Shown piece after piece: positions 1,213-28,854 of a DNA stretch of 64,000 bases (position 1 is the stretch's first letter; each line of letters begins with the position of its first letter). The stretch is taken from the NCBI GenBank assembly GCA_003551705.1, contig PUNJ01000117.1:8041-72040 (forward strand). Direction: 5' to 3'. The stretch is from Chloroflexota bacterium. GTDB lineage: Bacteria > Chloroflexota > Dehalococcoidia > UBA2247 > RBG-13-53-26. The position numbers and the translations under genes were made by a program. A model generated the notes under the pieces. That model was not told the origin of the DNA, made no database searches, and saw only the letters and a program-made list of their open reading frames with translations.

Positions 1213-3337
1213 CTTCTTGATCTCTCCTGCGCTTACGATTGCGGTCCACGGACCTGAGTATATCCCTTACGCCGGGCTTATCTCGGAACTCTTCCAGAGA
1301 GTACCGCGCCCTGCGTTTCCAGTTTGGATAGATTGATCCCCCTCCAGGGATATTCTGTGGCTCCTCTTCCAACCACAGGTCTTCCAGATTGACCACCACC
1401 ATCCGGGCTCCACTGGCCCCCAGAAAGGCCAAAGTACCGTTCAGTACCTCCGACACGCCGAATGAAGTCCCATGCAGAAAGCGCTTCTTCTGCAACACCT
1501 CAATCAAGTCAGACTTCATCTTCCGTCTCTGCAACTGTTCCTCCTGTTTGCCGGACTCGTTGAGCAGACCCAGGCTCAATCGTTGCTCGATATCCACGCC
1601 CTGCCAGAATCCGGCAAACGTCGGCATATCATGAGTATTGAGACTTGCCGCTGCATTCGAAGGTACGCTCAATCCAGGTCGACGGCTATTCTCCATGGCG
1701 AGTTCGTACTGTAGCACGTGCATGCGGTTTATCCCACGCTCCTTCAGTGCCCTGTTTATGTAGGCAGGGACCGTGCCCAGATTCTCACCTACCACACAAC
1801 ATTCGTGCCTGTGAGATTCCAGGTTAGTTATGGCATAGAACTCATCATCAGCATAACGGACATAGACCCCATCCCGGGCGCCCATGCCCTTTGGTATCCA
1901 ATATAACCTGTGAACGAACATCACGTGGTCAAGACGCAGTATCCCCTTGCGGCGCAGATGATGCCGCAAGCAGGCAATGTAGTAACTGTAACCCTGCCTT
2001 CTGAGTTGCTCCGGGTGAAGGGGAGGAAAACCCCAATTCTGCCCGCCCGAAAACACGGCATCGGGTGGCGCTCCTCCCGATGCATCGAGGGCGAAGGCGT
2101 TCTGATAGCGCCATGTATCATAACCTTCGGGGTCCACTCCCAGAGGAAAGTCCAGATATAGACCCATACTCTGACGGGCAGCATCCTCGAGCAAGCCTTC
2201 CATCTGCTCATGTATCAACCACTGTACGTACATGTAATACCGTTGCCGGTCTGGATCATAATCGCCCTCGTTCAATACTCCTTCCCGCAACCGCCCGGGC
2301 CACTGCTGCCAGGGTCGCTGCTGCTTTTCCAAAGTAGCACGAAATCGGGCATAATCCGCGACCATGGCATGACTCTTTGCAAATGCTTCCAATTCCTGGC
2401 GCCTGCCGGGAAGGTCCTCGTGACAGCACCTGCAGAGTTCCTCCATGACCAGCTTTCTCAAAGAACGCTCACGCTGGTACTTGATCAAGGGTGATTCGCG
2501 AAGCAAGCGTATCTCCTCCCTGAAGGCTTCAGAATCTAGCATAGTTCGGGCCGTAGAACAACCGGCCAGCTCGGGGATACTCTCAATATTGCAGTAGAAC
2601 TCATTCCAGAGTAGCCGGGTGGCGGGCTCGTACGGGCTTTCCTGTTCCGGAAAGGTCGCCAGCAAGGGGAGCGTGCCCACCATTTGGCCGCCCATCTCGC
2701 GCACCCATTCGATAAGCTTTCGCAAATCGGAAACGTCCCCGCTCTGCCAGCTCTGGTTACTGTGTAACGCATATAAAGGAACAAAAACACCCCAATTACG
2801 ATACACGCTTTCCCCATACGAGGGGTTATAGGCGCGGCGAGGAGCGGATACCAGGAGGGACTCGGTTCTGCTACCTCCGGCTTCCACTGTGAGTCGGTGA
2901 TATCCGAGTGGGATATCACGATCAACGTTGATTTCCTTCGCCAGAAAGAACCTTCCGTCAATGGCCTCTGACATGACCACCGGCGACGTGGAAGCATCCA
3001 ATATCCACTGTTGATGCTCACCATCTTCAAAATCGATTTCCACCACTAGCCTTGCTTCAAAGAGTGCCGAAGGCACGCGCACTTCTACAGGCGGCAAATT
3101 TCCCTCCCAGCACACTATGACCGGTTGAAGAGGTCGTTCCCAGTCAGAGATACACTTTTGACGCAAGGCCCCAATCACGTCTCCCAGAGTATGAACGGAA
3201 GCGCCAATCGAGCGCAACGCGGCAAACAATGATTCGTCCGAGGCTGGTTGCCGGCGCCGTTCCACATCAACATAGGAGGTCTGGATTCCATAGGCCCCAG
3301 CCAGGTCTCGCAGCAGGGCGAGGGTCTTTCTACTCAT
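1175..3337 (-). CDS. malQ: 4-alpha-glucanotransferase (amylomaltase, GH77) with about 200-aa N-terminal extension
   Basis: ORF 1175..3448; true start most likely ATG at 3335..3337 ([22 protein letters not shown]), 2 nt after treS-pep2 stop. The catalytic region runs from [19 protein letters not shown] through [24 protein letters not shown] to GENLGTVP, as in the amylomaltase family. Confidence 0.85.
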
Positions 3338-16542: not shown

Positions 16543-17094
16543 TCAGACAGACCTGTATCTAGCTTTCCCATTCTGGTACAGGTCGCCTCCATGAACGTCA
16601 TTGATCACTATCGCAGGAAAGTCTTCAACTTCCAACCTCAATACTGCTTCTGCACCCAGTTCCTCGAAGGCGATGATTTCGGACTTCTTGACTGTCTTCG
16701 ATATCAGGGCTCCAGCACCGCCGATGGCGGCAAAGTAGACGGCTCCATATTTCTTTATAGCTTCCTTGACGACTGCTGAACGCATGCCCTTGCCAATCAT
16801 ACCCTTCAACCCAGCTGCCATCAACCTTGGAGCGTAGCTGTCCATGCGCCCGCTGGTGGTAGGCCCCGCTGATCCGATTACCTGACCAGGTCGAGCAGGA
16901 GACGGGCCCATATAATACACCGTCTGGCCCTCAAGCTCGAATGGCAGCTGTGTTCCCTGCTCCATGGCCTCGACGATCCTCTTGTGCGCAGTATCACGAG
17001 CCACGTACATGACCCCATTCAACAGCACGTTATCGCCGGCGCTGAGGCTGGCAACGGTTTCGTCAGTTAACGGCAAGGATATATATCTTGGCAT
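16543..17094 (-). CDS. class I fumarate hydratase / Fe-S hydro-lyase, beta subunit
   Basis: 183 aa; matches the C-terminal (beta) domain of class I fumarase / tartrate dehydratase; no alpha subunit in the window. Confidence 0.7.
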   Translation of the reverse strand: MPRYISLPLTDETVASLSAGDNVLLNGVMYVARDTAHKRIVEAMEQGTQLPFELEGQTVYYMGPSPARPGQVIGSAGPTTSGRMDSYAPRLMAAGLKGMIGKGMRSAVVKEAIKKYGAVYFAAIGGAGALISKTVKKSEIIAFEELGAEAVLRLEVEDFPAIVINDVHGGDLYQNGKARYRSV

Positions 17095-17101
17095 TGTTGT
17101 C

Positions 17102-18268
17102 CTACACTTTCAGACCTTTTAGGATGTCCCTGGCAACTATGGACCTTTGCAGTTGCAGCGCAAGCTCAGTAGCGCTTGTTGAGACGGCATGGCCGCACAG
17201 TCTCTCCATGGGCAGTCCCGAAACAAAGGGCGGTCCATTAAATATGTGGGTCGTGCAGTCGGCTACCCTTCTTATCATATCGCTGGCAAACACCTTCACC
17301 ATAGCAGCCTCCCGCTTGATCGGCCTCTCTTCATCCGCCTTCCACGCTGCCTCATGGACCATAAGCCTGCAGGCATGGATGCCGATCGCAATATCGGCCA
17401 AGGCAGCCTCGACGTTCGTGCGTTTCGAAAGCACCTGGCCAAAGGCTTGCCAGCTTTGCGCCTGGGCTGAACACTCCTCCATCAATCGCTGAGCTACACC
17501 TACACTCCTGGCCGCCCTCACAACACGGCGGGACGGTAACCAGTGTTTGCCAAGATCGAAGGCCTTGCCCTCCTCTCCCAGCAGGCTTTCTACGGGCACA
17601 CGGCAGTCATCAAATTCGATTTTGACCGGAGCCATGATCGTACTCTGCCAGCCATTCCTTCGCCTATCATCCTTGACCTCCATAGCCCGCGTACCCTTGT
17701 CTACAAGGAAACACGATACGCCCTTTTCACCTGTGCGCGCAAGGACAACAACAAAGTAGTCACCTTCCGGATCAACTCGGGAAAAGGACAGCTTGCTACC
17801 TCTGATCAGGTATTCCTGCCCATCCCTGGCGGCCGTAACCTGCATGCTCTCTAGGCCGGCGCTGTTTTCGGATTCTAGAAAGGCGAGATAGGCCTGCTTC
17901 CGCCGGTCCAGCAACGGCGCAACATACCTCTCTTTCTGGTCCGGACTGGCTTCAAAAAGCACCGGACTCATATCGCCAAGCCGGAAGGGAATCACGGTCT
18001 GGCTCAACTCTTCCTCGACAAGGCAATTTCCCAGGACGCCAAGACCGGCACCCCCCATCTCTTCGGGCACATTTATGCCCCACAATCCTATCTCCATGGC
18101 CATGTTCGCCAGTTTGTCGTCCAATTCGAGCGACAGCGCGCATGTTGCATCGCTCAAGTCCGCAGCCCGTCCCAGCAGATCCCTCTCCAGGGGTTTCAAC
18201 TGGTCATTTACAAAGTCCTTTACCAGACTTTGCACCATCTTCAAGTCCTCAGAAATGTTGAAGTCCAC
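17102..18268 (-). CDS. acyl-CoA dehydrogenase family protein
   Basis: 388 aa; three-domain ACAD pattern. Confidence 0.7.
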   Translation of the reverse strand: MDFNISEDLKMVQSLVKDFVNDQLKPLERDLLGRAADLSDATCALSLELDDKLANMAMEIGLWGINVPEEMGGAGLGVLGNCLVEEELSQTVIPFRLGDMSPVLFEASPDQKERYVAPLLDRRKQAYLAFLESENSAGLESMQVTAARDGQEYLIRGSKLSFSRVDPEGDYFVVVLARTGEKGVSCFLVDKGTRAMEVKDDRRRNGWQSTIMAPVKIEFDDCRVPVESLLGEEGKAFDLGKHWLPSRRVVRAARSVGVAQRLMEECSAQAQSWQAFGQVLSKRTNVEAALADIAIGIHACRLMVHEAAWKADEERPIKREAAMVKVFASDMIRRVADCTTHIFNGPPFVSGLPMERLCGHAVSTSATELALQLQRSIVARDILKGLKV

Positions 18269-18281
18269 AGAAACGCCCCTG

Positions 18282-18731
18282 CTAGCCTGAAATGGCTTCT
18301 TCTACGAACAGGTCCAGGTCCATGTCGTCCTCATCGCCGATCCTTTGTGCCAGCCTGGACATGATCTCGACCAGCCGGTGATTAACAATATAATGCTTTA
18401 TGGTCGTGTCTACTTGCGGACATGACAGGACACACGCACAGCACTGGTCGCAGTCTTCTCCAACTGTGCTTTCCAGTGCCATCGAAGTACGTTGTTCCGT
18501 TTTGTCGCGCCTGTAGGGTTCCCGGAAAAGGAAAGGACAGGCATCGACGCAGTTACCGCATCCAAGACATTCCTTGTGCCCGGTTATGTCCTCACAGATG
18601 TTAAGAGCGTGGGCGGGGCCGAAGCCGCTGGATAGAAGTCTGCACCTGCCTACCGGAGGCGATTTGGTGTTCAGTATCTGATTTAGGATCGACTCAATCT
18701 CAGTTACGTTAACCTGTATGCGCTGTGGCAT
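18282..18731 (-). CDS. 4Fe-4S dicluster ferredoxin-domain protein
   Basis: 149 aa; CLGCGNCVDACP and CDQCCACVLSCP motifs. Confidence 0.6.
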   Translation of the reverse strand: MPQRIQVNVTEIESILNQILNTKSPPVGRCRLLSSGFGPAHALNICEDITGHKECLGCGNCVDACPFLFREPYRRDKTEQRTSMALESTVGEDCDQCCACVLSCPQVDTTIKHYIVNHRLVEIMSRLAQRIGDEDDMDLDLFVEEAISG

Positions 18732-18754
18732 CTAAGCACCCTCATCTGGAAAAT

Positions 18755-20416
18755 TCAGGCAGTCCTTATTCTGGCCGGCGGGAGGAGATCACGGCTGTTG
18801 TCCGGCATATAGTCCGGCCCCTTGCGGGCGTAGTCCGGGAGCAGCAAGGGAGACGCGGGCCGTGAATGATTCAGGTCGGCCTCCTCCAGAGCTTCCTGCC
18901 ACTTCCTTACATGCTCAAGACTCATTTTGCCCGGTGTTACCTCCCGGCTCCATCGAGCAGCCGCCTTGCCCGTCCTGCGACCGAATACAAAGATATCCAG
19001 GGTCGAATTTCCGATAAGCCGGTTCCTTCCATGCACGCCGCCCATGCATTCTCCCGCCGCAAACAGGCCGGGTACGGTAGTAGCACCGTCTGCATCGATC
19101 TTTATTCCACCATTCTGATAGTGCAACGTGGGATAGACCAGCATCGGTTCCTTGGAGATGTTGATGCCATAGTTGGCGAACTGCCGCACCATGGCAGGAA
19201 GCTCCCTGGCTACCGTGCCCTCACCTCGTATCACGTCGATCATTGGCGAATCGAGCCAGACACCCACCTCTCCAGTAGCAGTGCGGATGCCCTTATCCCG
19301 GTCCTTGCATTCACGGATGATGGCCGCCGCCACCACATCCCTGGGCTCCAGGGGCATGATGAACTGCGACCCATCGCTGTTGACCAGTTGAGCGCCCAGC
19401 GTACGGACCTTCTCGGTGACCAACTGGCCCAGTATCTGCACTGGATAGGCGGCCCCAGTAGGATGGTACTGCATGGTATCGATATAAAGCATCTCGGCCC
19501 CAGCCCGGTAAGCCAGCACCAGCCCATCAGCCGTCGCCCCATAATGATTGGTGGTGGGAAATCCCTGGATGTGTAAACGGCCCATACCGCCAGTGGCCAG
19601 AATTACGGCTTTTGCTTTAACGACGGCGATATCGTTCGTCTCCAGGTTCAGCAGGAGGGCACCCGCCACCTGACCGCGATCATCCAGTATCAGTTCTATG
19701 GCCGGAGAAAACTCGATATGGGCAATTTGCCGGTTGCGGAGTTCGTCTCTCAGGACCCGCATTTCTTCGAGCCCCGTGTAGTCCCTGGCTGAGTGGAGTC
19801 TCAACCTGGAGGCTCCGCCGCCGGAGAGTTCGTGCATACTGCCATCGGGGTTCTTGTCCCAGTTGACGCCCAGCTTCTCCAGCCACTTGATGACGGAGGG
19901 GGCATCTTTGACCAGGGCCTCAACCAGTTCGGGTATGTTAGCGTAGTGCCCGCCGCCCATGGTGTCGATATAATGGGTGACCGGCGAGTCCTCGGGACGG
20001 TCGGCCGCCTGAGTGCCTGCCTGAGCCCCGACGGTATTCGCGTCCCCAAGCCGTAACTTAGTCGCCAGGAGCACCTTAGCCCCGTTTTCCTCGGCCAGCA
20101 AGGCTGCGGAAACCCCTGCCCCGCCTCCGCCTATGATCAGCACGTCGACATCGTAGTCCACTTTGCCCAAATCTATACGCGCCGGGTTTATGCGGCTGTT
20201 ACCTTCGAGCACGTCAGCCATCTCATGCGGGGTAGGTATTCCCTTGTTGGCGCCCACTGCCAGGTCGCGCATGCCTTCAGCTATGAAATCGGGATGGCAG
20301 GCTTCCAGCAACGGCTTCTTCTCATCGTCACTTAGTCGCCGCAGGGTCTCGTTCAGTCGCTGGGACCTGGACGCTTCAAGCCTCTTTATGCTTTCTTCCA
20401 TGTACGCAGGATACAT
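18755..20416 (-). CDS. succinate dehydrogenase / fumarate reductase family flavoprotein subunit (FrdA/SdhA/TfrA-like) with about 85-aa N-terminal extension
   Basis: 553 aa; DVDVLIIGGGGAGVSAALLAEENGAKVLL dinucleotide fold, HYQNGGI motif, SDH/FRD capping and C-terminal domains. Confidence 0.75.
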   Translation of the reverse strand: MYPAYMEESIKRLEASRSQRLNETLRRLSDDEKKPLLEACHPDFIAEGMRDLAVGANKGIPTPHEMADVLEGNSRINPARIDLGKVDYDVDVLIIGGGGAGVSAALLAEENGAKVLLATKLRLGDANTVGAQAGTQAADRPEDSPVTHYIDTMGGGHYANIPELVEALVKDAPSVIKWLEKLGVNWDKNPDGSMHELSGGGASRLRLHSARDYTGLEEMRVLRDELRNRQIAHIEFSPAIELILDDRGQVAGALLLNLETNDIAVVKAKAVILATGGMGRLHIQGFPTTNHYGATADGLVLAYRAGAEMLYIDTMQYHPTGAAYPVQILGQLVTEKVRTLGAQLVNSDGSQFIMPLEPRDVVAAAIIRECKDRDKGIRTATGEVGVWLDSPMIDVIRGEGTVARELPAMVRQFANYGINISKEPMLVYPTLHYQNGGIKIDADGATTVPGLFAAGECMGGVHGRNRLIGNSTLDIFVFGRRTGKAAARWSREVTPGKMSLEHVRKWQEALEEADLNHSRPASPLLLPDYARKGPDYMPDNSRDLLPPARIRTA

Positions 20417-20435
20417 CAGACCTCCAGTCCTGCTG

Positions 20436-21125
20436 CTAGTAGGCGGGCTCTATATCCCGTTGAGCATATAGCCGTCTCAACTCAGCACCGTCCATGGTGC
20501 GGAGCTTCTCCAGTTCCGCATCGTAGCGGCCTGCTTCTATCTCAGCTATTCTGTCGTCCAAGTGCTGGGAATTAGGTGCCAGGAACCGCCCATACAGGCG
20601 GCGGCAGAGCAAAGCGATGTTATAGTGCGCCAGGCCTTGGGGACACCTCGCAGCACAGAGGCCGCACATGACGCAATCGAAGGACTTGTTGGCCACCTCC
20701 ATGATGTCGCCCCGAAGGGCGTCCGACATGTACCACATGACCTCCATTTCCTGGGGGCATGTCTTGGTACAGTTATTGCAGCCAAAGCACTTGATCAAAT
20801 CCGGGTACAAGGCCAACACCTGCTCACCCTCCGGGTGAAGCTTCTCAAGATCATATATGGCTTTCCTGGCCGGGAAGAAAGGAATCTGGACCAGGTACAT
20901 ATCGGGCTCCACGGTCTTTTGACAGGCAAGGGCATACTTCAACTGTGGATCGTCTTTCAGGTTGTAGATCGTTGCACAAGCACCGCAAAATCCCGCCCGG
21001 CAGCCACAGCCGCGTGTGATCCGGTAGCCACAGTATTCCATCGCTGTCAGGATGGTCAAACCTTCGGGCACTTTGTACTGCTTGCCCATGACATGAATGT
21101 CTATCATCCCATTCTGGTCAGTCAT
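20436..21125 (-). CDS. SDH/FRD iron-sulfur subunit-like protein (2Fe-2S plus two 4Fe-4S)
   Basis: 229 aa; CGCRAGFCGAC (C-x4-C-x2-C) 2Fe-2S motif, CFGCNNCTKTCP and CVMCGLCAARCP. Confidence 0.75.
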   Translation of the reverse strand: MTDQNGMIDIHVMGKQYKVPEGLTILTAMEYCGYRITRGCGCRAGFCGACATIYNLKDDPQLKYALACQKTVEPDMYLVQIPFFPARKAIYDLEKLHPEGEQVLALYPDLIKCFGCNNCTKTCPQEMEVMWYMSDALRGDIMEVANKSFDCVMCGLCAARCPQGLAHYNIALLCRRLYGRFLAPNSQHLDDRIAEIEAGRYDAELEKLRTMDGAELRRLYAQRDIEPAY

Positions 21126-21162
21126 CGATAAACTTCACCCCGCTTCAGGTTCTAGCCAGAGA

Positions 21163-22362
21163 TCACTTCCCGTTATTGTCTACGAGCATCCTTCTTAGCT
21201 CGACCACCATCGACGCACAGTCTATACTCATGGGACACCTCACCTTGCATCTGCCGCAAGTCAGACAAGTGTAGGCCAGTGAAGCACCTTTCTGCACATC
21301 ATCGCTGAGCAACGCCGCCCAAACAGCACCTACACCCGCAAAGTATTTGTCTCCGAAGTGGCCGGCAGTGGTGGCGAAGACAGGGCACTCGTAAAGGCAG
21401 CCACCACACCGCAAGCAGTAAAGCGCCTGCCTTAATATGGGGTTCTTCGCCAATTCCGTGCGCCCGGCATCCATGAAAATTACGTGAAAATCAGCCGGCC
21501 CGTGCGCCCCATAGGTTGTCACCTTTTCGATGTCGCCGGTCTTGCTGGGGCCGGATACCATGCTGACATAGGACGGGATGGTGTAGTTGGCAAATCTCCA
21601 GGTAACCTCAGATACCTTCCAGGCGTCGCCCAGAGTCGGCACCAGCTTCTCCATACCGATCAGCGCGATGTGTACCGGCGGCGCACCGGTGGCCAGCCGT
21701 ATATTGCCCTCGTTCTCGATGATAAAGAGTGTGCCGGTATCGGCCGAGACCACATTGGCGCCGCTCATGCCTATGTCTGCCCTGAAATACTGCTCCCGCA
21801 AGAGCTTCTTGGCGGTCGCCACCATTCTGCTGATATCCTCCGGTGGATGCTGTTCGCCCGTTATTTTGGAGAACAGTTCAGCTACATCTTCCTTGGGAAC
21901 GTGAATAGCCGGTGATAGAATATGCATGGGTCGAGAGCCCAGTTTCTGTATGATGAACTCACCCAGATCGGTCTCATAGACCTCATTGCCGCGCTCTTCC
22001 ATATGCTCCCGGAGTTCTATTTCCTCCGAGGTCATGCTCTTACCCTTGACGATCACCTTGCCCGTACCGACAAGGCGGTCATGAATGGACAGTGCTTCGG
22101 CAGCGGTCTTGGCGATATATGCCTTTCCCTTGTTCTCCTCTACGGCCTCACATGCCTGAGCCGCCAGCTCGTCCATCCGTCCTATGGATTCTTCCTTTAT
22201 CTGACGCACTTCCTCGGCCATCTTGTAGGTGTGCGGGAACTTCTTCAGGGCATTGCTCGTGTTGCCCCTGTAGCTCTTGATAGCCCTTGACAGCGCCAAA
22301 CCAATGCGCTCGTTGTGAGCGGCTTCCATGATCTCTTTCTTATACTCTTTAAAACTAGACAT
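21163..22362 (-). CDS. LutB-like iron-sulfur protein (LUD/DUF162 domain plus 4Fe-4S dicluster)
   Basis: 399 aa; C-terminal CLRCGGCLYECPVF...CLTCGRCKVRCP. Confidence 0.6.
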   Translation of the reverse strand: MSSFKEYKKEIMEAAHNERIGLALSRAIKSYRGNTSNALKKFPHTYKMAEEVRQIKEESIGRMDELAAQACEAVEENKGKAYIAKTAAEALSIHDRLVGTGKVIVKGKSMTSEEIELREHMEERGNEVYETDLGEFIIQKLGSRPMHILSPAIHVPKEDVAELFSKITGEQHPPEDISRMVATAKKLLREQYFRADIGMSGANVVSADTGTLFIIENEGNIRLATGAPPVHIALIGMEKLVPTLGDAWKVSEVTWRFANYTIPSYVSMVSGPSKTGDIEKVTTYGAHGPADFHVIFMDAGRTELAKNPILRQALYCLRCGGCLYECPVFATTAGHFGDKYFAGVGAVWAALLSDDVQKGASLAYTCLTCGRCKVRCPMSIDCASMVVELRRMLVDNNGK

Positions 22363-22371
22363 CTGACAACC

Positions 22372-23394
22372 TCACATAGCACCGGCGACGACTTCGGCCA
22401 GGTCTAACACCTCAATCTTTTCCGATCCCAGTTCTTTAAGTCCAGCCTTCAGTTGAAGGATGCAGCCAGGACAGTGGGTGACGATTGTGTCCGCCCCTGT
22501 ATCCAGGAGTTCCTTCGTGCGATTCACGGCAAGAATGTGGCTGAGTTCAGGGAAAACAGCCTCGAACCCTCCACCTCCGCCGCAGCAAGTTGACCATTCC
22601 TTCTCAGTCCCTTCACTACTTACGAGTTCAACACCCTCGATCGCACTCAACACCTGACGAGGCTCTTCTATTACCCCCATAAACCTGGAAAGCTGGCAGG
22701 GGTCATGGTACACAACCTTGACCTGGCGTGAGAACTGGAGCTTTCTCGACCCGAGGTTCTCGGCGACTATTTGAATGAAGTGTTTCACTTCCAGATCGGA
22801 ACCACCGTCCTGCGATGCCACGAAATTGCTGAGAGTGTAGGTACAAGAAGGCACGAGCCCTATTATCCGCTTCACACCTCTGGATTTCAGCACCTTGCGC
22901 ACATCCTCGGTGTTCTTGACAAAGTCTCTTTCCAAACCGATGTAGTGCAGCAACCCACCGCAGCAGGGCTCATCTTCACCCAGATAGCCGAACTCAATGC
23001 CAAGCTTGTTCAACACCGTAACCGCATCCTTCAATGGCTTCGTATCGGCCTCATTCCCCCTCACCGTTACCTTTCGATATACGCCACCAAGGTCGATGCC
23101 AAGTTTCTTCTGTAATCCGGCCATTCCCATGGGTAACTCCGCACCTATTTTGCTCTTGTCCATGCCCCGCATCAGGGACATCAGCGAAACGAGATCGCTG
23201 GAGTACTGGTATCCGCACCCAGCAAAGAAAATGGTATCAGTCTCCTTGGAGAACTTGATATCTTTGGCCCACTTCGAGCGGGATCTCTTTGCATCGCCTA
23301 GAATATTGTGCTTGGAAATTATATTATCAGCCAGGTATGCCAACCCTGGAGGGATCAGGCCCTTCGATTTACTACTCATGTGAATAACCCCCAA
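22372..23394 (-). CDS. CCG-domain Fe-S oxidoreductase (HdrB/HdrD/GlcF/LutA/SdhE-like)
   Basis: 340 aa; two CCG motifs (EDEPCCGGLLHY and WSTCCGGGGGFEAV). Confidence 0.65.
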   Translation of the reverse strand: MGVIHMSSKSKGLIPPGLAYLADNIISKHNILGDAKRSRSKWAKDIKFSKETDTIFFAGCGYQYSSDLVSLMSLMRGMDKSKIGAELPMGMAGLQKKLGIDLGGVYRKVTVRGNEADTKPLKDAVTVLNKLGIEFGYLGEDEPCCGGLLHYIGLERDFVKNTEDVRKVLKSRGVKRIIGLVPSCTYTLSNFVASQDGGSDLEVKHFIQIVAENLGSRKLQFSRQVKVVYHDPCQLSRFMGVIEEPRQVLSAIEGVELVSSEGTEKEWSTCCGGGGGFEAVFPELSHILAVNRTKELLDTGADTIVTHCPGCILQLKAGLKELGSEKIEVLDLAEVVAGAM

Positions 23395-23410
23395 TATGAA
23401 TTCGGTCTAC

Positions 23411-24295
23411 TCAGGCGCGTACCGGTAGACGGTCCTTCAGTAGCTGCGATATCTCGCTGGGCCTCTCAGCCACCGGTACGCCGGCGGCAAGGTAGGCATC
23501 CACCTTTGACCGGGCAGTGCCGACATTGCCCATGACGATGGCGCCCGCATGTCCCATTCGCTTTTCAGGAGGAGCGGCCCTTCCCGCAATGTACGCCACC
23601 ACCGGCTTCGGATACCGCGTGTCAGCGATATACTGGGCAGCCATCTCCTCTGCTTTGCCCCCCACCTCACCAATCAATACAACGCCTTTCGTCTCAGCAT
23701 CATTCCTGAACATCTCAAGCAGCTTTACAAAGTCCAACCAAACTATCGCATCACCCCCGATGCCAACGCAAATACTTTGACCCAGTCCGGAACTCGTTAT
23801 GTGCCAGGCGATCTCGTAGGTCAACGTACCGCTTCTGGAGGCTATGGCTACGTTCCCAGCCTGGAAGATGTGACCGGGCATGATGCCAACCTTGACTCTG
23901 TCTACAGGGTTTATGACTCCAGGACAATTGGGTCCGACTATCACTGCGCCGGTCCTCTCCGCTTTGGCAATGAACTCAATGGAGTCTTTCTGCGGTACCA
24001 TCTCGGTAATAATCACCACCGTCTTGATACCTGCATCCAAAGCTTCATGCACTGCGTCAGGAGCGAAGCGCGCAGGTACAAAGATAATGGATGTGTTGGC
24101 CCCACGTTCCGCTACAGCCTGTGGTACCGTCCCATATACAGGCACGCCCTCGACTTCTTGACCTCCTTTGCCTGGAGTGACCCCGGCCACTACATTGGTC
24201 CCGTATCGCAACATGGACTGAGCGTGAAACCTGCCTTCATTACCAGTTATACCCTGCACTACCACCCGGGAACCAGCATCGATTATGCTATTCAA
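23411..24295 (-). CDS. sucD: succinyl-CoA synthetase alpha subunit
   Basis: 294 aa; CoA-binding and catalytic-His region (GHAGAIV) typical of SucD. Confidence 0.9.
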   Translation of the reverse strand: MNSIIDAGSRVVVQGITGNEGRFHAQSMLRYGTNVVAGVTPGKGGQEVEGVPVYGTVPQAVAERGANTSIIFVPARFAPDAVHEALDAGIKTVVIITEMVPQKDSIEFIAKAERTGAVIVGPNCPGVINPVDRVKVGIMPGHIFQAGNVAIASRSGTLTYEIAWHITSSGLGQSICVGIGGDAIVWLDFVKLLEMFRNDAETKGVVLIGEVGGKAEEMAAQYIADTRYPKPVVAYIAGRAAPPEKRMGHAGAIVMGNVGTARSKVDAYLAAGVPVAERPSEISQLLKDRLPVRA

Positions 24296-25437
24296 GACTT
24301 CACCTCACCACTTATCTTCAGTAACTGCTCTGTAGCCGTCTCCATGTCGGGGTATACCCCAATCCCGGCCTCGCTCAATAACCTGGCACCTTCCTCTTCA
24401 TTCGTACCCATCATTCGCACTGCAACCGGCTTCTTCTCCCATGAGGCTTCCAGACCTTGAATGATTCCGTCCGCAACGATATCACATCGCGTGATCCCGC
24501 CCAGAATATTCACCAGGACTCCCTTCACCTCAGGCTTTGACATGACAAGGAGCAAGCCGTTCTTGATGACGTCCACCTTAGCCCCGCCTCCAATATCCAG
24601 AAAATTCGCAGCCCGCCCCCCATAGAGATTCACAAGGTCCATGGTAGCCATTACCAGTCCAGCGCCGTTGCCTACAATACCGATGTTTCCATCCAGTTCT
24701 ACATAAGCCAGACCCTGCCGCCTCGCCACGGCTTCTCTGGGAGTATCTTCAGTCCGCACCATGTCCCGTTGTTCGAATTCAGGGTGGCGAAAAATCGCGT
24801 TCTCATCAATGATTATCCTGGCATCGGCAGCTACGAATGCACCGGTAGACGTCTTTGCCAGGGGATTGAGCTCGACCAATTCAGCATCAAAGTCCATGGC
24901 CACCGTATACAGAGTGGCGGCAACCTTGGCAAAGCCTTCAGTATCACCCTCCGACAGCCCGAACTCCTTAACCATGTTTCTTGCCGCAGCAACATCAAAG
25001 CCCGTTGTGGGTTCCACCCAGTGGCGCAATATCTTATCCGGTGTGGCGCTGGCCACCTCTTCGATGTCCACACCGCCGCTCGTAGACAGCAAAACGACGA
25101 ACTTTCGCTCTTGCCGGTCGACGGTGACCGACGCATAGAGCTGGTCTACCAGGTCAAGCTTCTCTTCTATGAGTACAATCTCTACGGGGATATCCTTGAT
25201 CCTGCTGCCAACAAGTTTCGCCGCAGCATCTCCAGCAGCCTGTGGACTATCGGCAAAAACTATACCGCCTGCCTTGCCTCTGCCCGAGACTTGCACTTGG
25301 GCTTTTATGACTACAGGCCCACCAAAGCCGGCGGCTATGGTCTCCGCTTCGGCAGGATCCATGGTCACCCGCCCGGCCGGTATACCCAGCCCGTACCTTC
25401 CCAGTATTTCTTTGGCTTCATATTCAAAAAGCTTCAA
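24292..25437 (-). CDS. sucC: succinyl-CoA synthetase beta subunit (ATP-grasp)
   Basis: 381 aa; MKLFEYEAKEIL start, ATP-grasp and ligase-CoA domains; 4-nt overlap with sucD. Confidence 0.9.
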   Translation of the reverse strand: MKLFEYEAKEILGRYGLGIPAGRVTMDPAEAETIAAGFGGPVVIKAQVQVSGRGKAGGIVFADSPQAAGDAAAKLVGSRIKDIPVEIVLIEEKLDLVDQLYASVTVDRQERKFVVLLSTSGGVDIEEVASATPDKILRHWVEPTTGFDVAAARNMVKEFGLSEGDTEGFAKVAATLYTVAMDFDAELVELNPLAKTSTGAFVAADARIIIDENAIFRHPEFEQRDMVRTEDTPREAVARRQGLAYVELDGNIGIVGNGAGLVMATMDLVNLYGGRAANFLDIGGGAKVDVIKNGLLLVMSKPEVKGVLVNILGGITRCDIVADGIIQGLEASWEKKPVAVRMMGTNEEEGARLLSEAGIGVYPDMETATEQLLKISGEVKS

Positions 25438-25455
25438 AAACTTCCTCCCGCGGAG

Positions 25456-25860
25456 CTATTGTGGTTCGGTCAACTCAATGAGCGCTCTCGTTCCCTTGGG
25501 ATGCAGGAAGGCTATCTTGTTGTTCCCCGCACCCATACGCGACTTCTTGTCTATGAGCGGTACTCCTCCCTTGTCCAGGTTTTCCAGCACGCTATCTATA
25601 TTGTCTACCTGTAACGCCAGGTGATGCAGACCCTCGCCTCTGGAAGCTATGAACTTGCCGATGGGTCCATCTGGGTCAGTAGTTTCCAGTAACTCTATTC
25701 TGATATCGCCGACAGGAATGACAGCGACACGGACTTTCTGGTCTGATACTATTTCAATATCCTCCACTTTCAAGCCAAGCCATTCCACGTAGGGTTTCAT
25801 GGCTTCCTCAATGCTGTTTACGGCAATCCCGATATGGTTAACCTTCTTTACCACGGCCAT
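25456..25860 (-). CDS. methylmalonyl-CoA epimerase (VOC/glyoxalase fold)
   Basis: 134 aa; HIGIAV...HHLALQV metal-binding pattern; in the mutase operon. Confidence 0.75.
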
Positions 25861-26251
25861 TCTCCTTCATCTGCTTCTCGATATAGGCTGTAATGTCTGC
25901 CAGGCGTGTGCCCGGTCCAAACACCCTGGATAGGCCGGCCTCTTGGAGGACTGGGATATCCTTCTCGGGGATGATGCCTCCGCCGACTACAAGGATGTGT
26001 CCAGCGCCCTTGCTGCGCAGTAGTTCCACAACCCTGGGGAAAAGGGTCATGTGAGCCCCCGACAGGCAACTGAGCCCGACAACATCGACGTCTTCCTGTA
26101 CCGCTGCATCGCATATCTGTTCGGGAGTCAGCCGAAGGCCAAGATAGACCACTTCCATACCCGCATCGCGTAGGCCCTGCGCAATGACCTTCGCGCCTCT
26201 GTCATGTCCGTCCAAGCCTGGTTTGGCCACTAGTACTCGAATCTTGTCCAT
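25838..26251 (-). CDS. methylmalonyl-CoA mutase, B12-binding small subunit
   Basis: 137 aa; DGHDRGAKV (DxHxxG cobalamin His-ligand motif), Rossmann-like. Confidence 0.85.
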
Positions 26252-26266
26252 GACTTTGATCCCTTC

Positions 26267-27871
26267 CTATAAAATGTTCGGTTCCCGGTATTCTCCGAAT
26301 ACACTCCTGAGTACATCGCTTATTTCGCCCACAGTTGCATACGCCTTCGCTGCCTCAATGAGGGCCGGCATCAGGTTTTGATCACTTTGAGACGTCTCGC
26401 GCACACCTTCCAGTGCTCTGCCGACCTTCTCCTTGTCTCTGCCCTTTCTCAGCTTCTCAAGGCGCTCCGCTTGTTTCTGCTCGATTTCCCGTCCAATCTC
26501 GAGTATCTTGCGTGGTTCAGCCTCAGCTACCTGGTATTTGTTTACTCCAACAATGACCTGATCACCGGAGTCCACCGCTTTCTGAAAACTGTACGAGGAG
26601 CTGGCGATTTCCCTCTGGATATAGCCCTTTTCAATGGCCTTGAGCGCGCCCCCCAGGCGGTCGACCTCCTCAATGTATTCCAGAATCTTCGTTTCCAGAG
26701 CGTTAGTCAGAGACTCAACAAAGAAAGACCCGCCAAGCGGGTCCACCGTATCCGCTACACCACTCTCCTCAGCAATGATCTGTTGTGTCCTCAAGGCCAC
26801 CTGTACCGCTTCCTCGGTGGGCAAAGCCAGTGCTTCGTCATACGAGTTGGTATGTAGTGACTGGCAGCCACCCAGTACTGCTGCGAGCGACTGTATCGTG
26901 ACCCTGACGATGTTGTTCAGCGGCTGCTGTGCAGTGAGTGTGAAGCCATCTGTCTGTACGTGATAACGGAGGGATTGCGACCTGGTATTGGTGCTCCCGA
27001 AACGTTCCTTCATGATCCTGGCCCAGAGACGGCGCAGAGCCCTGTACTTTGCCACCTCTTCCAGCAGATTGGTATAAGCCGCGAAGAAGAATGAGAACCT
27101 CGATGCAAAGGAATCGACTTCCATGCCCTTGGCAATCATGGCCTCTACATAGGCTATGCCATTAGCCAGCGTGAAAGCGGCTTCCTGGGCGGCAGTGGCA
27201 CCGGCCTCCCTCATATGATAACCACTGATACTTATCGAGTTCCACTTGGGCAATTCGTTGGCACAGAAGGAGCATATATCAGTTACAAGCCTCATGGAAG
27301 GTTCCGGGCCAAAGATGTAGGTATTGCGAGCAATATACTCCTTGAGAATGTCATTTTGAACGGTGCCCTCGAGCTTGTTCCGATCAGCCCCCTGCTTCTC
27401 CGCCGCTACAATGTACATGGCGAGAATGATGGGCGCTGTGGCGTTTATGGTCATGGATGTACTGACATCTGCCAGAGGGATGCCCTCCCACAGCCGCTCC
27501 ATATCCTCAAGTGAGTCTACAATTACGCCGCATCTGCCGACCTCGCCTGCCGCCAGCGGATGGTCCGAGTCATACCCCTCCTGGGTAGGTAGCTGGAAGG
27601 CCACGCTGAACCCAGTCTGCCCCTGCTTGTACAGGTACTTGAATCTCTCGTTTGTTTCCTCAACCGTGCCGAAGCCGGCATACTGCCGCATGGTCCAGAG
27701 CCTGCCTCGATAACCAGTGGGCATGATATGCCGGGTGAAGGGGTACTCGCCTGGCAATCCCAGGTCCTCATCCCGAACAGCGGCATCGGCTGCAGTGTAG
27801 ACCCTCTTAACGGGCAAACCATCTACGGTCGTTTTGAATTCGGTCTTTCTTTCGCTGCTCTTATCCGCCAT
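26267..27871 (-). CDS. methylmalonyl-CoA mutase, large catalytic (TIM-barrel) subunit; split archaeal-type
   Basis: 534 aa; [48 protein letters not shown]; start ATG at 27869..27871 with GGAAGAGG SD. Confidence 0.9.
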
Positions 27872-27885
27872 GATTTACCTCTTCC

Positions 27886-27920
27886 AAAAAAATAAGAACT
27901 ACCGGTGTTTGTTCCGGTAG
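27886..27920 (-). terminator. rho-independent terminator-like hairpin immediately upstream of the mutase RBS
   Basis: Minus-strand RNA: CUACCGG-AACAAACA-CCGGUAG (perfect 7-bp stem) followed by UUCUUAUUUUUUU, then GGAAGAGG (SD) and AUG of the mutase large subunit. Confidence 0.6.
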
Positions 27921-28150
27921 CCCGTTTATCCAATCCTTGGTTTCTTACGACCGCGGGCCAAACCCACGTCCAACTCCCTTTTTCTCTAGTCTATTCGCCG
28001 ACAGCATTAGCCTCTCCCCAAGCTGTGCTGTTCTCCTAGTAAAGGGGCTTAACCTTGTTACCTCTGTTCCAAGATCAAGCCTTGCTCCCCTTTTAGACCG
28101 ATCCGTGGCATTTGGCCAGACGTCAATGCGACACCAGCTTAGCCAAGTCT
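27921..28150 (-). ncRNA. candidate structured leader or small RNA upstream of the methylmalonyl-CoA operon (function unknown)
   Basis: About 230 nt with no credible ORF, lying between a sigma70-like promoter (TTGACT-N17-TGT-TAGACT, near 28140..28170 on the minus strand) and the terminator above. Contains long imperfect hairpins (e.g. AAAGGGG...CCCCUUU; ACAGCA...UGCUGU). No match to riboswitch classes I can recall. Confidence 0.3.
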
Positions 28151-28206
28151 AACACTTACCCAACGTCAAGTCAAATACGACCTTCGTTGCCATACGTCCA
28201 GTTAGT

Positions 28207-28854
28207 CTAGCTATGAAGCCTATCATAGAACTCCAGGAGGTTATGCACCACTTCATCGCCGCGTTGCACGCTTTTCCTGTCCAGGTGGTAAGACCGGATG
28301 CCCAATGAACGAGGAGCATCGTAATCAAACCTGGGATGGTCACCAACGTGCACTACCTCCTCCGGCGCCACGCCAAGAGCATCACACACTCTGCGGTACA
28401 CTTCAGGGGTCTTCTTCACCTCACCAAAGTCGGAGGTGCAAGAGAAGACAGCCTTGAAATAGCGCTCCAGCGAACCGGCGCCGAGTTCTATTTGGATAAA
28501 CTCGGTCGGAGCGTTTGAAGTCACTACGAGATCATAGTTCTTGTGGAGAAGGCCCAAGACATGTTTCGCATCCGGGAAGGGACTGGCAGCATGCTGGAAG
28601 CTCTCCAGCATGGTACGCCAACCACTGCCCAAGCCCAAGGTCCTAAACCAGTACTTGACGTCGTACCACTCTATCCTGTCTTCACCAACCTTATCATATT
28701 CTCGAAAGACGTGGGTCCTGGCATCATCAAGTGGCATGTTGCAGGCATCAGCAAAGAGCCTCGGAATGCCGTAGCCCCAAACCAGTTCTACGAAGTGGTC
28801 CTGAGTCAAAGTGCCATTCATATCGAAGGAAATGACTTTGTAGGAATTCCTCAT
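28207..28854 (-). CDS. HAD-superfamily hydrolase
   Basis: ORF 28207..29100; real start ATG 28852..28854 (MRNSYKVISFDMNGTLT, HAD motif I DxDGT); AT-rich promoter upstream; the first 82 codons of the ORF are a spurious extension. Confidence 0.6.
   Translation of the reverse strand: MRNSYKVISFDMNGTLTQDHFVELVWGYGIPRLFADACNMPLDDARTHVFREYDKVGEDRIEWYDVKYWFRTLGLGSGWRTMLESFQHAASPFPDAKHVLGLLHKNYDLVVTSNAPTEFIQIELGAGSLERYFKAVFSCTSDFGEVKKTPEVYRRVCDALGVAPEEVVHVGDHPRFDYDAPRSLGIRSYHLDRKSVQRGDEVVHNLLEFYDRLHS

Follow-up and report, generated by a model that had tools for sequence, protein, structure and literature searches.

The question raised by this locus is what the 335-nt region between a HAD-hydrolase gene (stop codon TAG at 28209..28207, minus strand) and the genes for methylmalonyl-CoA mutase (ATG at 27871..27869, minus strand) does, and to which of its neighbours it belongs. 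The region lies in the window analysed here, a 64,000-nucleotide stretch of DNA from a Chloroflexota bacterium. In anoxic sediments and guts, both the formation and the oxidation of propionate centre on the methylmalonyl-CoA (succinate-propionate) pathway and, to our knowledge, the control of its operons is poorly known. A preliminary description of the sequence had read the region as a riboswitch-like leader, an independent small RNA or the long 3' UTR and terminator of the HAD gene. Our comparisons indicate that the region is a real, conserved 5' leader of the mutase operon and not a part of the HAD gene. From its sequence and that of its relatives, we propose with moderate confidence that it is a cis-acting transcription attenuator with Shine-Dalgarno (SD) masking. 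Such a putative terminator checkpoint, conserved before a whole pathway cluster, represents a concrete regulatory element for Chloroflexota without genetics, and the leader is a candidate RNA family absent from Rfam.

The mutase gene opens an operon made of the large and small mutase subunits, an epimerase, succinyl-CoA synthetase and fumarate-reductase/succinate-dehydrogenase-like genes. Judging from gene orientation and spacing, this operon probably extends through 26251..16543. The promoter TTGACT-N17-TGT-TAGACT announced in the preliminary description was found at 28174..28146 on the minus strand, with a 17-nt spacer between TTGACT and TGT-TAGACT, and the position of the -10 predicts a transcription start at about 28140..28138. 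A consensus scan from the HAD gene to the mutase gave no other promoter-like site, and none in the stretch separating the hairpin from the SD. In a 2.5-kb stretch, neither promoter-like sites (4 found vs 2.3 expected from shuffles) nor terminator-like sites (2 vs 1.9) were enriched, and both were judged real because they are conserved in relatives, not because of the scan.

Table 1. Positions of the mutase operon, its leader and the elements within the leader.
Feature	Position	Strand	Basis or remark
-35 hexamer TTGACT	28169..28174	(-)	Consensus scan; TTGAC invariant in relatives' alignments
Extended -10 TGT-TAGACT (hexamer 28146..28151)	28146..28154	(-)	Scan; columns TG-TA-A-T invariant in relatives
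Mutase-operon 5' leader, ~270 nt	27872..28140	(-)	Homologous leaders in relatives; no Rfam match
Window-specific long hairpin GGCUUGAUCUUGG...CAAGGUUAAGCC	28046..28081	(-)	MFE and centroid folds; not conserved in relatives
Degenerate G-rich/CUGG box copy UUGGGGAGAGGCUAAUGCUGU, SD-like	28001..28021	(-)	Aligned by eye with relatives' GGGGGGUGAG..CUGGCUNCC
Candidate 20-codon ORF, MLSANRLEKKGVGRGFGPRS-stop	27945..28007	(-)	AUG 28007, stop 27947..27945; coding doubtful
Hairpin GACGUGGG-UUUG-GCCCGCGGUC	27949..27971	(-)	3' arm can pair with terminator 5' arm instead
Putative terminator/attenuator hairpin GGGCUACCGG-AACAAACA-CCGGUAGUUC (AACAAACA, loop)	27896..27923	(-)	Scan; compensatory changes in relatives
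U-rich tail UUAUUUUUUU	27886..27895	(-)	Terminator scan; able to pair with SD region
SD GGAAGAGG of mutase large subunit	27878..27885	(-)	Seen in sequence; aligns with relatives' GAGGGG
Methylmalonyl-CoA mutase large subunit, first gene of the putatively controlled operon	26267..27871	(-)	Pfam PF01642, E = 1e-221
Downstream genes, co-oriented and tightly packed: B12-binding subunit, epimerase, sucC, sucD, CCG protein, LUD/4Fe-4S protein, Fe-S protein, FAD flavoprotein, acyl-CoA dehydrogenase, fumarase C-terminal subunit	16543..26251	(-)	Pfam assignments

The same layout of promoter, leader, hairpin, SD and mutase was recovered in 11 further distinct leaders from metagenomes and MAGs (about 12 with that of the window). 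They belong to uncultured Chloroflexota, probably a Dehalococcoidia-related group, with a mutase that shares about 78-88% identity with the window's. These leaders measure 209-299 nt, counted between the last base of the -10 and the mutase ATG. They start with a sigma-70-type promoter, TTGACA-N17/18-TGnTAGACT, the hexamers of which are invariant amid diverged surrounding sequence, and end with the hairpin AAGCUACCNG...CNGGUAGCUU, its U-rich tail, the SD (GAGGGG) and the mutase AUG. Within 1.1 Mb of fetched DNA, the hairpin sequence was confined to these mutase leaders, and a search of the remaining window and of other loci gave no second copy of the hairpin or of the short boxes described below. 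When a genome collection was scanned with the mutase protein, none of the matches listed, which came from many phyla at 65% identity or less, had the leader.

This distribution bears on the third reading of the preliminary description, a long 3' UTR and terminator of the HAD gene. As this reading expects, the window shows no terminator from the HAD stop (28207) up to the hairpin. It is contradicted by the relatives, in which 150-300 nt separate the HAD gene from the leader promoter and, in loci L087 and L168, a hairpin of its own follows the HAD gene. HAD homologues without a mutase next to them, including the closest one (L085, 81% identical), also lack the element, and the conserved promoter is situated downstream of the HAD stop. 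Such an origin therefore has an almost negligible probability.

An independent trans-acting sRNA gene about 250 nt long, bounded by the promoter and the terminator and merely located upstream of the mutase, would explain why its own promoter and terminator are conserved as a unit, and terminated leader transcripts could indeed accumulate. However, the terminator stands 14 nt before the SD and is followed by no promoter, which means that polymerase has to pass it to transcribe the operon. Moreover, the outgroups L165 and L171 transcribe the operon directly from the homologous promoter, through a short leader and through a tRNA-Pro gene, respectively, which identifies the leader promoter as the operon's promoter. 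The body of the putative sRNA is also poorly conserved, corresponds to no Rfam family and is always linked to the mutase. We consider a separate sRNA gene, the second reading of the preliminary description, highly improbable.

The terminator hairpin proposed at the end of the region (27923..27896, followed by its tail, at most 14 nt before the SD and AUG) is present in the window and conserved in the relatives. In the window it consists of a 10-bp stem with 6 G-C pairs and an 8-nt loop. Every tail in the family is U-rich; those of most relatives contain 5-8 U within their first 10 nt (5 within the first 6 in L089), U-richness being only moderate in some of them, such as L172 (UCUGAUUCUG). The hairpin thus combines the G+C-rich stem and U tract of an intrinsic terminator, and it is maintained at the RNA level. 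The terminator helix was 96% paired among relatives, with two-sided changes at 4 pairs. A second helix, between the tail and the SD (27895..27887 with 27883..27875 on the minus strand in the window), was 92.9% paired, with a compensatory change at 2 pairs. Considered together, the two helices were 94.9% paired, with two-sided changes at 6 pairs, and their covariation score of 0.407, against 0.270±0.023 in shuffles, was reached by 0 of 500 shuffles. The comparisons cover about 12 distinct members of a single narrow clade, which keeps their statistical power low. Registers shifted by 1-3 columns were at most 61% paired. The terminator appeared in the MFE fold of every full-length leader, and the RNAalifold consensus of 14 leaders contained the terminator and tail:SD helices only. 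A DNA operator was discarded: G.U pairs and a variable spacing of 10-12 nt between the arms argue for an RNA hairpin, and compensatory changes occur beside a conserved core. From these features the hairpin would be expected to stop transcription in vivo; alternatively, it could be a stabilising or processing element.

The region had also been described as highly structured, with several long hairpins. This applies to the window, where the 335-nt region is more stably folded than its dinucleotide shuffles (z = -3.25; a single shuffle in 100 did as well) and where both GGCUUGAUCUUGG...CAAGGUUAAGCC and ACAGCA/UGCUGU occur in the folds. It does not extend to the family, since the leader bodies of 12 relatives, taken without the terminator, gave z values from -3.0 to +1.5, with no consistent excess of stability, and the long hairpins are not conserved. 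Beyond the terminator, the leaders share only the short boxes GGGGGGUGAG...CUGGCUNCC...AUCCUC, and the remainder is unalignable; the window copy of the G-rich/CUGG box (GGGGGGUGAG..CUGGCUNCC in the relatives), UUGGGGAGAGGCUAAUGCUGU, scored below significance against the box profile. Folding of nascent transcripts revealed no conserved antiterminator, the partners of the terminator 5' arm differing between members. In the window, the GACGUGGG-UUUG-GCCCGCGGUC hairpin (-11.9 kcal/mol), the alternative pairing of its 3' arm with the terminator 5' arm (-12.6 kcal/mol) and the terminator (-16.1 kcal/mol) were compared. The hairpin is common to the window and L084 and the alternative pairing is not conserved, so that the latter represents, on these computed energies, a window-specific candidate antiterminator.

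Three further pairings were rejected. A central hairpin joining the G-rich box with AUCCUC and UGGCU with AGCUA was 79% paired, a value equalled by shuffles (334 of 500), and showed no covariation. Pairing of block A with the CUGG box (RNAduplex) had a register inconsistent between members. Finally, a 5' hairpin (P1) and a pairing of the 5' pyrimidine strand with the SD were attractive in MFE folds, but the pyrimidine arm is probably not transcribed because it lies within about 2-8 nt of the -10.

These observations have to be weighed against a leader that senses nothing, in which a constitutively leaky terminator sets a fixed expression level and the boxes are incidental. In a variant of this explanation, the hairpin may insulate the operon against read-through from the HAD gene, which in the window has no terminator of its own and ends 33 nt before the -35, or may act as a 5'-proximal stabiliser of a processed mRNA. 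The lack of covariation-supported structure upstream of the hairpin, of a consistent alternative pairing and of excess folding stability would all agree with such a passive element. On the other hand, a leader of 210-300 nt and its boxes (G-rich, CUGGCUNCC, AUCCUC) have been kept where the remainder can no longer be aligned. The stem is conserved in sequence as well as in structure. The CUGGCUNCC box contains a repeat of the stem's 5' arm and, in 5 of 11 leaders, pairs better with the terminator 3' arm than any other upstream segment does. In addition, the related lineages L165, L171 and L176 manage without the hairpin, which is therefore not simply required for expression. An unregulated leader appears unlikely, although it deserves consideration.

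In the attenuator that we favour, transcription would start at the conserved sigma-70-type promoter (28174..28146) and polymerase would cross about 230 nt of leader before reaching the hairpin and U-rich tail (27923..27886). The hairpin would form by default and stop most transcripts, so that expression of the operon would depend on read-through; in the transcripts that escape, the tail would pair with the SD and dampen translation. Read-through would presumably be modulated by a factor (a protein, a small molecule or a translating ribosome) acting on the upstream conserved boxes, namely the G-rich box, the AUCCUC box and the CUGGCUNCC box with its copy of the hairpin 5' arm. Should the effector be found, it would show which signal commits these organisms to propionate/succinate metabolism.

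This scheme resembles known terminator-based leaders, which include the expression platforms of transcriptional riboswitches and the protein-dependent attenuators of the PyrR, TRAP and LicT/RAT types. The likeness consists of a promoter, a long 5' leader and a terminator whose U-tail abuts the RBS, with no downstream promoter, and of a stem sequence that is conserved in the window's family and partly repeated upstream. Unlike those leaders, it has no definable sensor domain, binding site or antiterminator helix, and no Rfam match. Scanning the whole window at gathering thresholds placed no 6S, tmRNA, RNase P, SRP, tRNA or other family in the leader, and cmscan of 601 nt of the window and 8 related loci at E<=10 gave no leader match, with no B12, T-box or 6S among the results. 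This bears out the preliminary description, which could assign the region to none of the B12, T-box, SAM or other classes.

Regarding its first reading, a riboswitch-like leader, the architecture of an attenuation leader is real and recurs in about 12 distinct relatives, whereas a conserved aptamer, in the form of covarying helices framing unpaired nucleotides, was not found among these sequences, a comparison of low power. A metabolite riboswitch is thus possible but unsupported. In its more specific form, a new class in which GGGGGGUGAG, CUGGCUNCC and AUCCUC bind a pathway metabolite such as adenosylcobalamin, propionyl- or methylmalonyl-CoA or succinate and switch the terminator off, we regard it as quite unlikely; if true, it would be the first RNA switch turning on a B12-dependent mutase or propionate pathway operon.

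Cobalamin (AdoCbl) riboswitches (clan including RF00174) share with the leader a site before genes of B12-related metabolism, the GCCACGG of the window and boxes, GGUGAGAA...GCUG..CC, that loosely resemble the B12 core. They differ in that neither the window nor the 8 relatives gave a cmscan match at E<=10. The alignments of relatives do not preserve GCCACGG, which had been pointed out as a weak B12 box, and the idea of a B12 box was dropped. According to a published study, known B12 riboswitches mostly repress B12 synthesis and transport genes and not B12-dependent mutases, and in Xylanibacter ruminicola cobalamin induces mutAB by a route given there as unknown, with no riboswitch nearby (PMC11575231). 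T-box leaders (RF00230) are likewise long and end in a terminator, and the box GGUGGUA / GGGGGGUGA is similar to a portion of the T-box sequence GGGUGGUACC. In contrast to T-boxes, which are known in the phylum, the leader has no Rfam match at E<=10 and no identified Stem I or specifier features, and its genes are not aminoacyl-tRNA-related.

Ribosome-mediated attenuation is exemplified by the trp, his and E. coli pyrBI leaders, the pyrBI leader ORF running through the attenuator. A mechanism of the trp or pyrBI type, with an ORF beginning at the G-rich SD-like box, would resemble the leader in its stop-free frame from this box toward or into the terminator. The CUGG-anchored sense frame stays open for 16-59 codons, exceeds both other frames in length in 10 of 12 leaders and ends in the terminator 5' arm, its loop, its 3' arm or beyond in 7 leaders (at a UGA overlapping the mutase AUG in L172). 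In the window, where the preliminary description saw no plausible ORF, a 20-codon ORF does follow a good SD match (GGGGAGAGG-N3-AUG), although its coding capacity is doubtful. It covers the hairpin able to pair with the terminator 5' arm, giving a 1:2 / 2:3 / 3:4 pairing topology with the ORF stop just past region 2.

Other properties separate the leader from these attenuators. The synonymous share of differences was 15.5% in the CUGG frame versus 12-13% in the other frames, a weak coding constraint, and the excess of open frame became marginal once the conserved box was excluded (p about 0.1, an estimate). Start codons and SD spacing are inconsistent, with no in-frame start near the box in L089 and L084, the 2:3 pairing is not conserved, and in the window the SD and AUG of the ORF are buried in the ACAGCA/UGCUGU hairpin. 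The peptides are unalignable past about 17 codons and share no run of any regulatory codon, and a profile search among 5.8 billion proteins matched a single called ORF, P0121, from the same lineage as L082. Control by a leader peptide accordingly seems decidedly improbable, and we are just as doubtful of the routes it could take, in which the position of the ribosome would cover or melt the terminator 5' arm or select among the 1:2 / 2:3 / 3:4 pairings. The hypothesis of a small protein was also abandoned (weak coding signal, no protein family), and a 71-aa ORF on the plus strand had no Pfam match.

The tail:SD helix is reminiscent of FourU-type RNA thermometers, which are SD-masking hairpins, in that a U run pairs with the SD (CUUUA/UGAGG; 9 pairs, UUAUUUUUU/AAGAGGUAA, in the window) and covaries. 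It differs from them in having very little strength in most members, where it comprises 5 pairs, chiefly G.U and A-U, and in using the terminator tail as its U run, and temperature control of this helix is pure speculation.

A tRNA origin of the leader was considered and rejected. ARAGORN detected no tRNA in the window or in the long leaders, and the latter, including the window's, showed no similarity to the tRNA-Pro of the sister lineages (p from 0.1 to 1.0), which distinguishes them from tRNA-mRNA co-transcripts. The only trace of such an origin is in the short L165-type leader, where the homologous promoter is followed by a decayed 3' half of tRNA-Pro(UGG) and then by the mutase (z = 15). 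In the sister lineage L171, an entire tRNA-Pro(UGG) gene stands between this promoter and the mutase.

A consensus scan of the gap between the HAD-hydrolase gene and the gene for the large subunit of methylmalonyl-CoA mutase returned one promoter-like and one terminator-like site on the minus strand, with the SD and AUG of the mutase within 14-24 nt after the latter. Both sites lie where the preliminary description had placed a promoter and a terminator next to the mutase ribosome-binding site, and the hairpins it named were recovered in the predicted fold of the 335-nt region, which is more stable than its dinucleotide shuffles (z = -3.25). Promoter- and terminator-like matches as such were no commoner in this stretch than in shuffles, so their reality must rest on comparison with relatives.

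Positions of the features discussed, in the window and in loci fetched from relatives
Feature	Locus	Position	Strand	Details
Rrf2-family regulator gene	window; L081; L084	30298-30795; 1-349; 141-584	plus (window)
HAD-family hydrolase stop	window	28209..28207	minus	TAG
Promoter-like site, -35	window	28174..28169	minus	TTGACT; consensus scan
Promoter-like site, -10	window	28151..28146	minus	TAGACT, TG just before, 17-nt spacer from -35; consensus scan
Inverted repeat	window	about 28145..28125
Candidate ORF, 20 codons	window	28007..27945	minus	MLSANRLEKKGVGRGFGPRS; SD GGGGAGAGG 3 nt upstream of AUG
Hairpin upstream of terminator	window	27971..27949		-11.9 kcal/mol
Terminator-like stem	window	27923..27896	minus	GGGCUACCGG/CCGGUAGUUC, 10 bp, 8-nt loop; consensus scan
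Tail directly 3' of stem	window		minus	UUAUUUUUUU; consensus scan
Mutase SD	window	27885..27878	minus	GGAAGAGG
Mutase large subunit, start	window	27871	minus	534 aa
Genes past sucCD	window	16543-23394	minus
Stop-free leader frame	L172	1310-1505
tRNA-Pro(UGG)	L171	1351-1427
Decayed tRNA-Pro 3' half	L165 (also L166, L167)	about 1406-1451		46 nt
Sequence after HAD homologue	L085	1811-2229		unrelated

Rfam release 15 gave no match at gathering thresholds over the whole window, none at E<=10 over 601 nt around the leader region and none at E<=10 inside the homologous leaders of eight related loci, while ARAGORN found neither tRNA nor tmRNA in the window. These results rule out the cobalamin, T-box, SAM and 6S families and their like in canonical form; the B12-box-like string GCCACGG noted in the preliminary description is not conserved.

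Leaders were gathered from the contigs of close mutase homologues and by searching metagenomes with the HAD protein; the matches listed in a mutase search of the genome collection were distant homologues and of no help here. This led to 11 further distinct leaders, 12 with that of the window: L081 (=L082/L083), L084, L087 (=L168-170), L088, L089 (~L091), L092 (~L094), L095, L172 (=L086), L173 (~L174), L175 and L177. All share the order HAD gene, promoter, leader, hairpin, SD, mutase, and measure 209-299 nt from the -10 end to the mutase ATG. In the relatives' alignments neither the -35 nor the extended -10 varies (TTGAC ... TG-TA-A-T), amid diverged sequence. Almost every member has the hairpin as AAGCUACCNG-loop-CNGGUAGCUU, and in each one it is followed by a U-rich tail (5-8 U within the first 10 nt; in L089, 5 within the first 6).

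From a 14-sequence alignment RNAalifold retained nothing but the terminator stem and a weak but conserved 5-bp helix that joins the U-tail to the SD (CUUUA/UGAGG). With both helices counted together on this alignment, 94.9% of their cells are paired, six pairs show two-sided changes, and compensatory cells number 16 against 5.8±1.8 in shuffles; the covariation score of 0.407 (shuffles, 0.270±0.023) was reached by none of 500 shuffles, and registers slid by 1-3 columns gave at most 61% pairing. The covariation that the preliminary description proposed to look for in relatives is thus present in both helices. The hairpin contains G.U pairs (two stem pairs in the window), the spacing from CUACC to GGUAG varies from 10 to 12 nt, and compensatory changes flank the conserved core. 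These sequence features argue against a DNA operator and indicate that the hairpin would act at the RNA level. Across the window and the 1.1 Mb of loci fetched, its sequence did not occur outside these leaders.

The element is linked exclusively to the mutase operon, which has no other promoter, and its profile matched none of 80 more distant mutase loci and none of about 70 HAD loci lacking a downstream mutase; that it represents an independent sRNA seems very improbable to us. Three outgroups were informative. L165-167 keep the homologous promoter with a 142-nt leader devoid of the hairpin; in L171 a genuine tRNA-Pro(UGG) separates this promoter from the mutase; and L176 has a short intergenic region and no leader. 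The promoter therefore belongs to the operon, and the long hairpin-bearing leader is a clade-specific addition. The earlier suggestion of a long 3' UTR of the HAD gene is contradicted by the relatives, in which 150-300 nt separate that gene from the leader promoter and where the HAD gene of L087/L168 has its own hairpin behind it; we regard it as the most improbable of the readings. In L085, unrelated sequence follows the nearest HAD homologue (81% identical to that of the window) and no leader was found within 419 nt, so linkage of HAD gene and leader is not universal, even among close relatives. In L171 no terminator intervenes between the tRNA and the mutase SD after it, and L165-167 carry at the same place the decayed tRNA remnant (z = 15 against shuffles); these loci resemble stages in the decay of a tRNA-mRNA co-transcript to a leader.

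Downstream of the mutase, co-oriented and closely packed minus-strand genes encode the B12-binding small subunit, methylmalonyl-CoA epimerase (glyoxalase fold), succinyl-CoA synthetase beta then alpha, a CCG-domain protein, a LUD/4Fe-4S protein, an Fe-S protein (2Fe-2S/4Fe-4S), a FAD flavoprotein of the fumarate-reductase/succinate-dehydrogenase type, an acyl-CoA dehydrogenase and a fumarase C-terminal subunit, so that the leader precedes the entire succinate-propionate pathway cluster. Past sucCD, the CCG-domain, LUD, Fe-S and flavoprotein genes form an unusual fumarate-reductase/succinate-dehydrogenase-like set, and class I fumarase is represented by its C-terminal subunit only. The nearest mutases in the protein collection are about 80% identical, with source labels Chloroflexi or Dehalococcoidia, which points to an uncultured member of the Chloroflexota as the source of the window. 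Terminator-based leaders are a well known type of element and this family is absent from Rfam; the literature searchable here held no report of an RNA element ahead of methylmalonyl-CoA mutase operons. One study (PMC11575231) describes induction of mutAB by cobalamin in a rumen bacterium through an unexplained route, with no riboswitch nearby. The leader is a solid candidate for a cis-regulatory RNA that serves a central pathway of anaerobic metabolism in this uncultured clade.

We propose that the conserved promoter would drive transcription through the leader to the conserved hairpin and its U-tail, 14 nt before the SD, where transcription would terminate; operon expression would require read-through, which may be regulated via conserved boxes. 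The terminator is formed in the MFE fold of every full-length leader, making termination the predicted default state. With moderate confidence we consider the leader a cis-acting attenuator, a true metabolite riboswitch being an unlikely form of it.

The middle of the leader is mostly unalignable between subgroups, with short recurring elements: a purine-rich 5' end, a complementary pair GUCUUGA...CAAGAC, an SD-like G-rich box followed by CUGGCUNCC (GGGGGGUGAG-N3-5-GNCUGGCUNCC), a pyrimidine box AUCCUC / UUCUC about 25 nt further on, and a purine-rich run ahead of the hairpin. In the window the G-rich/CUGG box is degenerate and gave no score against the box profile. A hairpin model pairing the G-rich with the pyrimidine box and UGGCU with AGCUA is 79% paired, a value equalled in 334 of 500 partner shuffles, which denotes complementarity without covariation. 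An unregulated leaky terminator, or a stabiliser, is somewhat unlikely. Without their terminators, the leader bodies gave MFE z-scores from -3.0 to +1.5 (window, -2.7); the strong structure described earlier therefore holds for the window (and L088), not for the family.

When nascent transcripts were folded up to just before the terminator 3' arm, no common partner of the 5' arm emerged. The GCUACC core of the 5' arm recurs in the CUGGCUNCC box, and of the upstream segments this box pairs best with the 3' arm in 5 of 11 leaders (near-best in 2 more); for the 5' arm, the G-rich box (GGUGGU type) ranks first in three or four. These folding models suggest, but do not prove, that the box hairpin may compete with the terminator. 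The upstream hairpin of the window has a 3' arm that can pair with the terminator 5' arm as an alternative to the terminator (-12.6 versus -16.1 kcal/mol for the latter), a 1:2 / 2:3 / 3:4 topology like that of the trp attenuator which is not conserved among relatives.

Ribosome-mediated attenuation through a leader peptide is a minor and quite unlikely rival. The sense frame anchored on CUGG is stop-free for 16-59 codons and exceeds the two other frames in length in 10 of the 12 leaders; in seven leaders it ends in the terminator 5' arm, loop or 3' arm or past the terminator, and the window has a 20-codon ORF behind a good SD. Against translation, the synonymous share of differences is 15.5% in this frame versus 12-13% in the others, start codons and SD spacing differ between members or are missing, peptides are unalignable past about 17 residues, and among 5.8 billion predicted proteins the profile matched a single called ORF, from the L082 lineage; by our own estimate the open-frame excess is marginal without the conserved box. 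In the window ORF, 4 of 7 codons at positions 11-17 encode glycine, and its SD and AUG sit within the ACAGCA/UGCUGU hairpin. In L172 the frame stays open across the entire terminator hairpin and stops at a UGA that overlaps the mutase AUG (AUGA), an arrangement typical of translational coupling.

An inverted repeat spans the predicted transcription start of the window and recurs in L087, L172, L081, L092, L088, L084 and L095 within the first 3-24 nt past the -10 (CCTTTC-G-GAAAGG, TCTTCGCGAAGA, GTCAGC..GCTGAC). Its arms covary, and the copies share a core TTC-N1-4-GAA. Should transcription start unusually near the -10, the repeat could form a hairpin at the 5' end of the RNA; otherwise it could be a repressor operator. 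The conserved Rrf2-family gene nearby, divergent from the HAD/mutase side and adjoining spermidine synthase and AdoMet decarboxylase genes, encodes a candidate regulator of the region.
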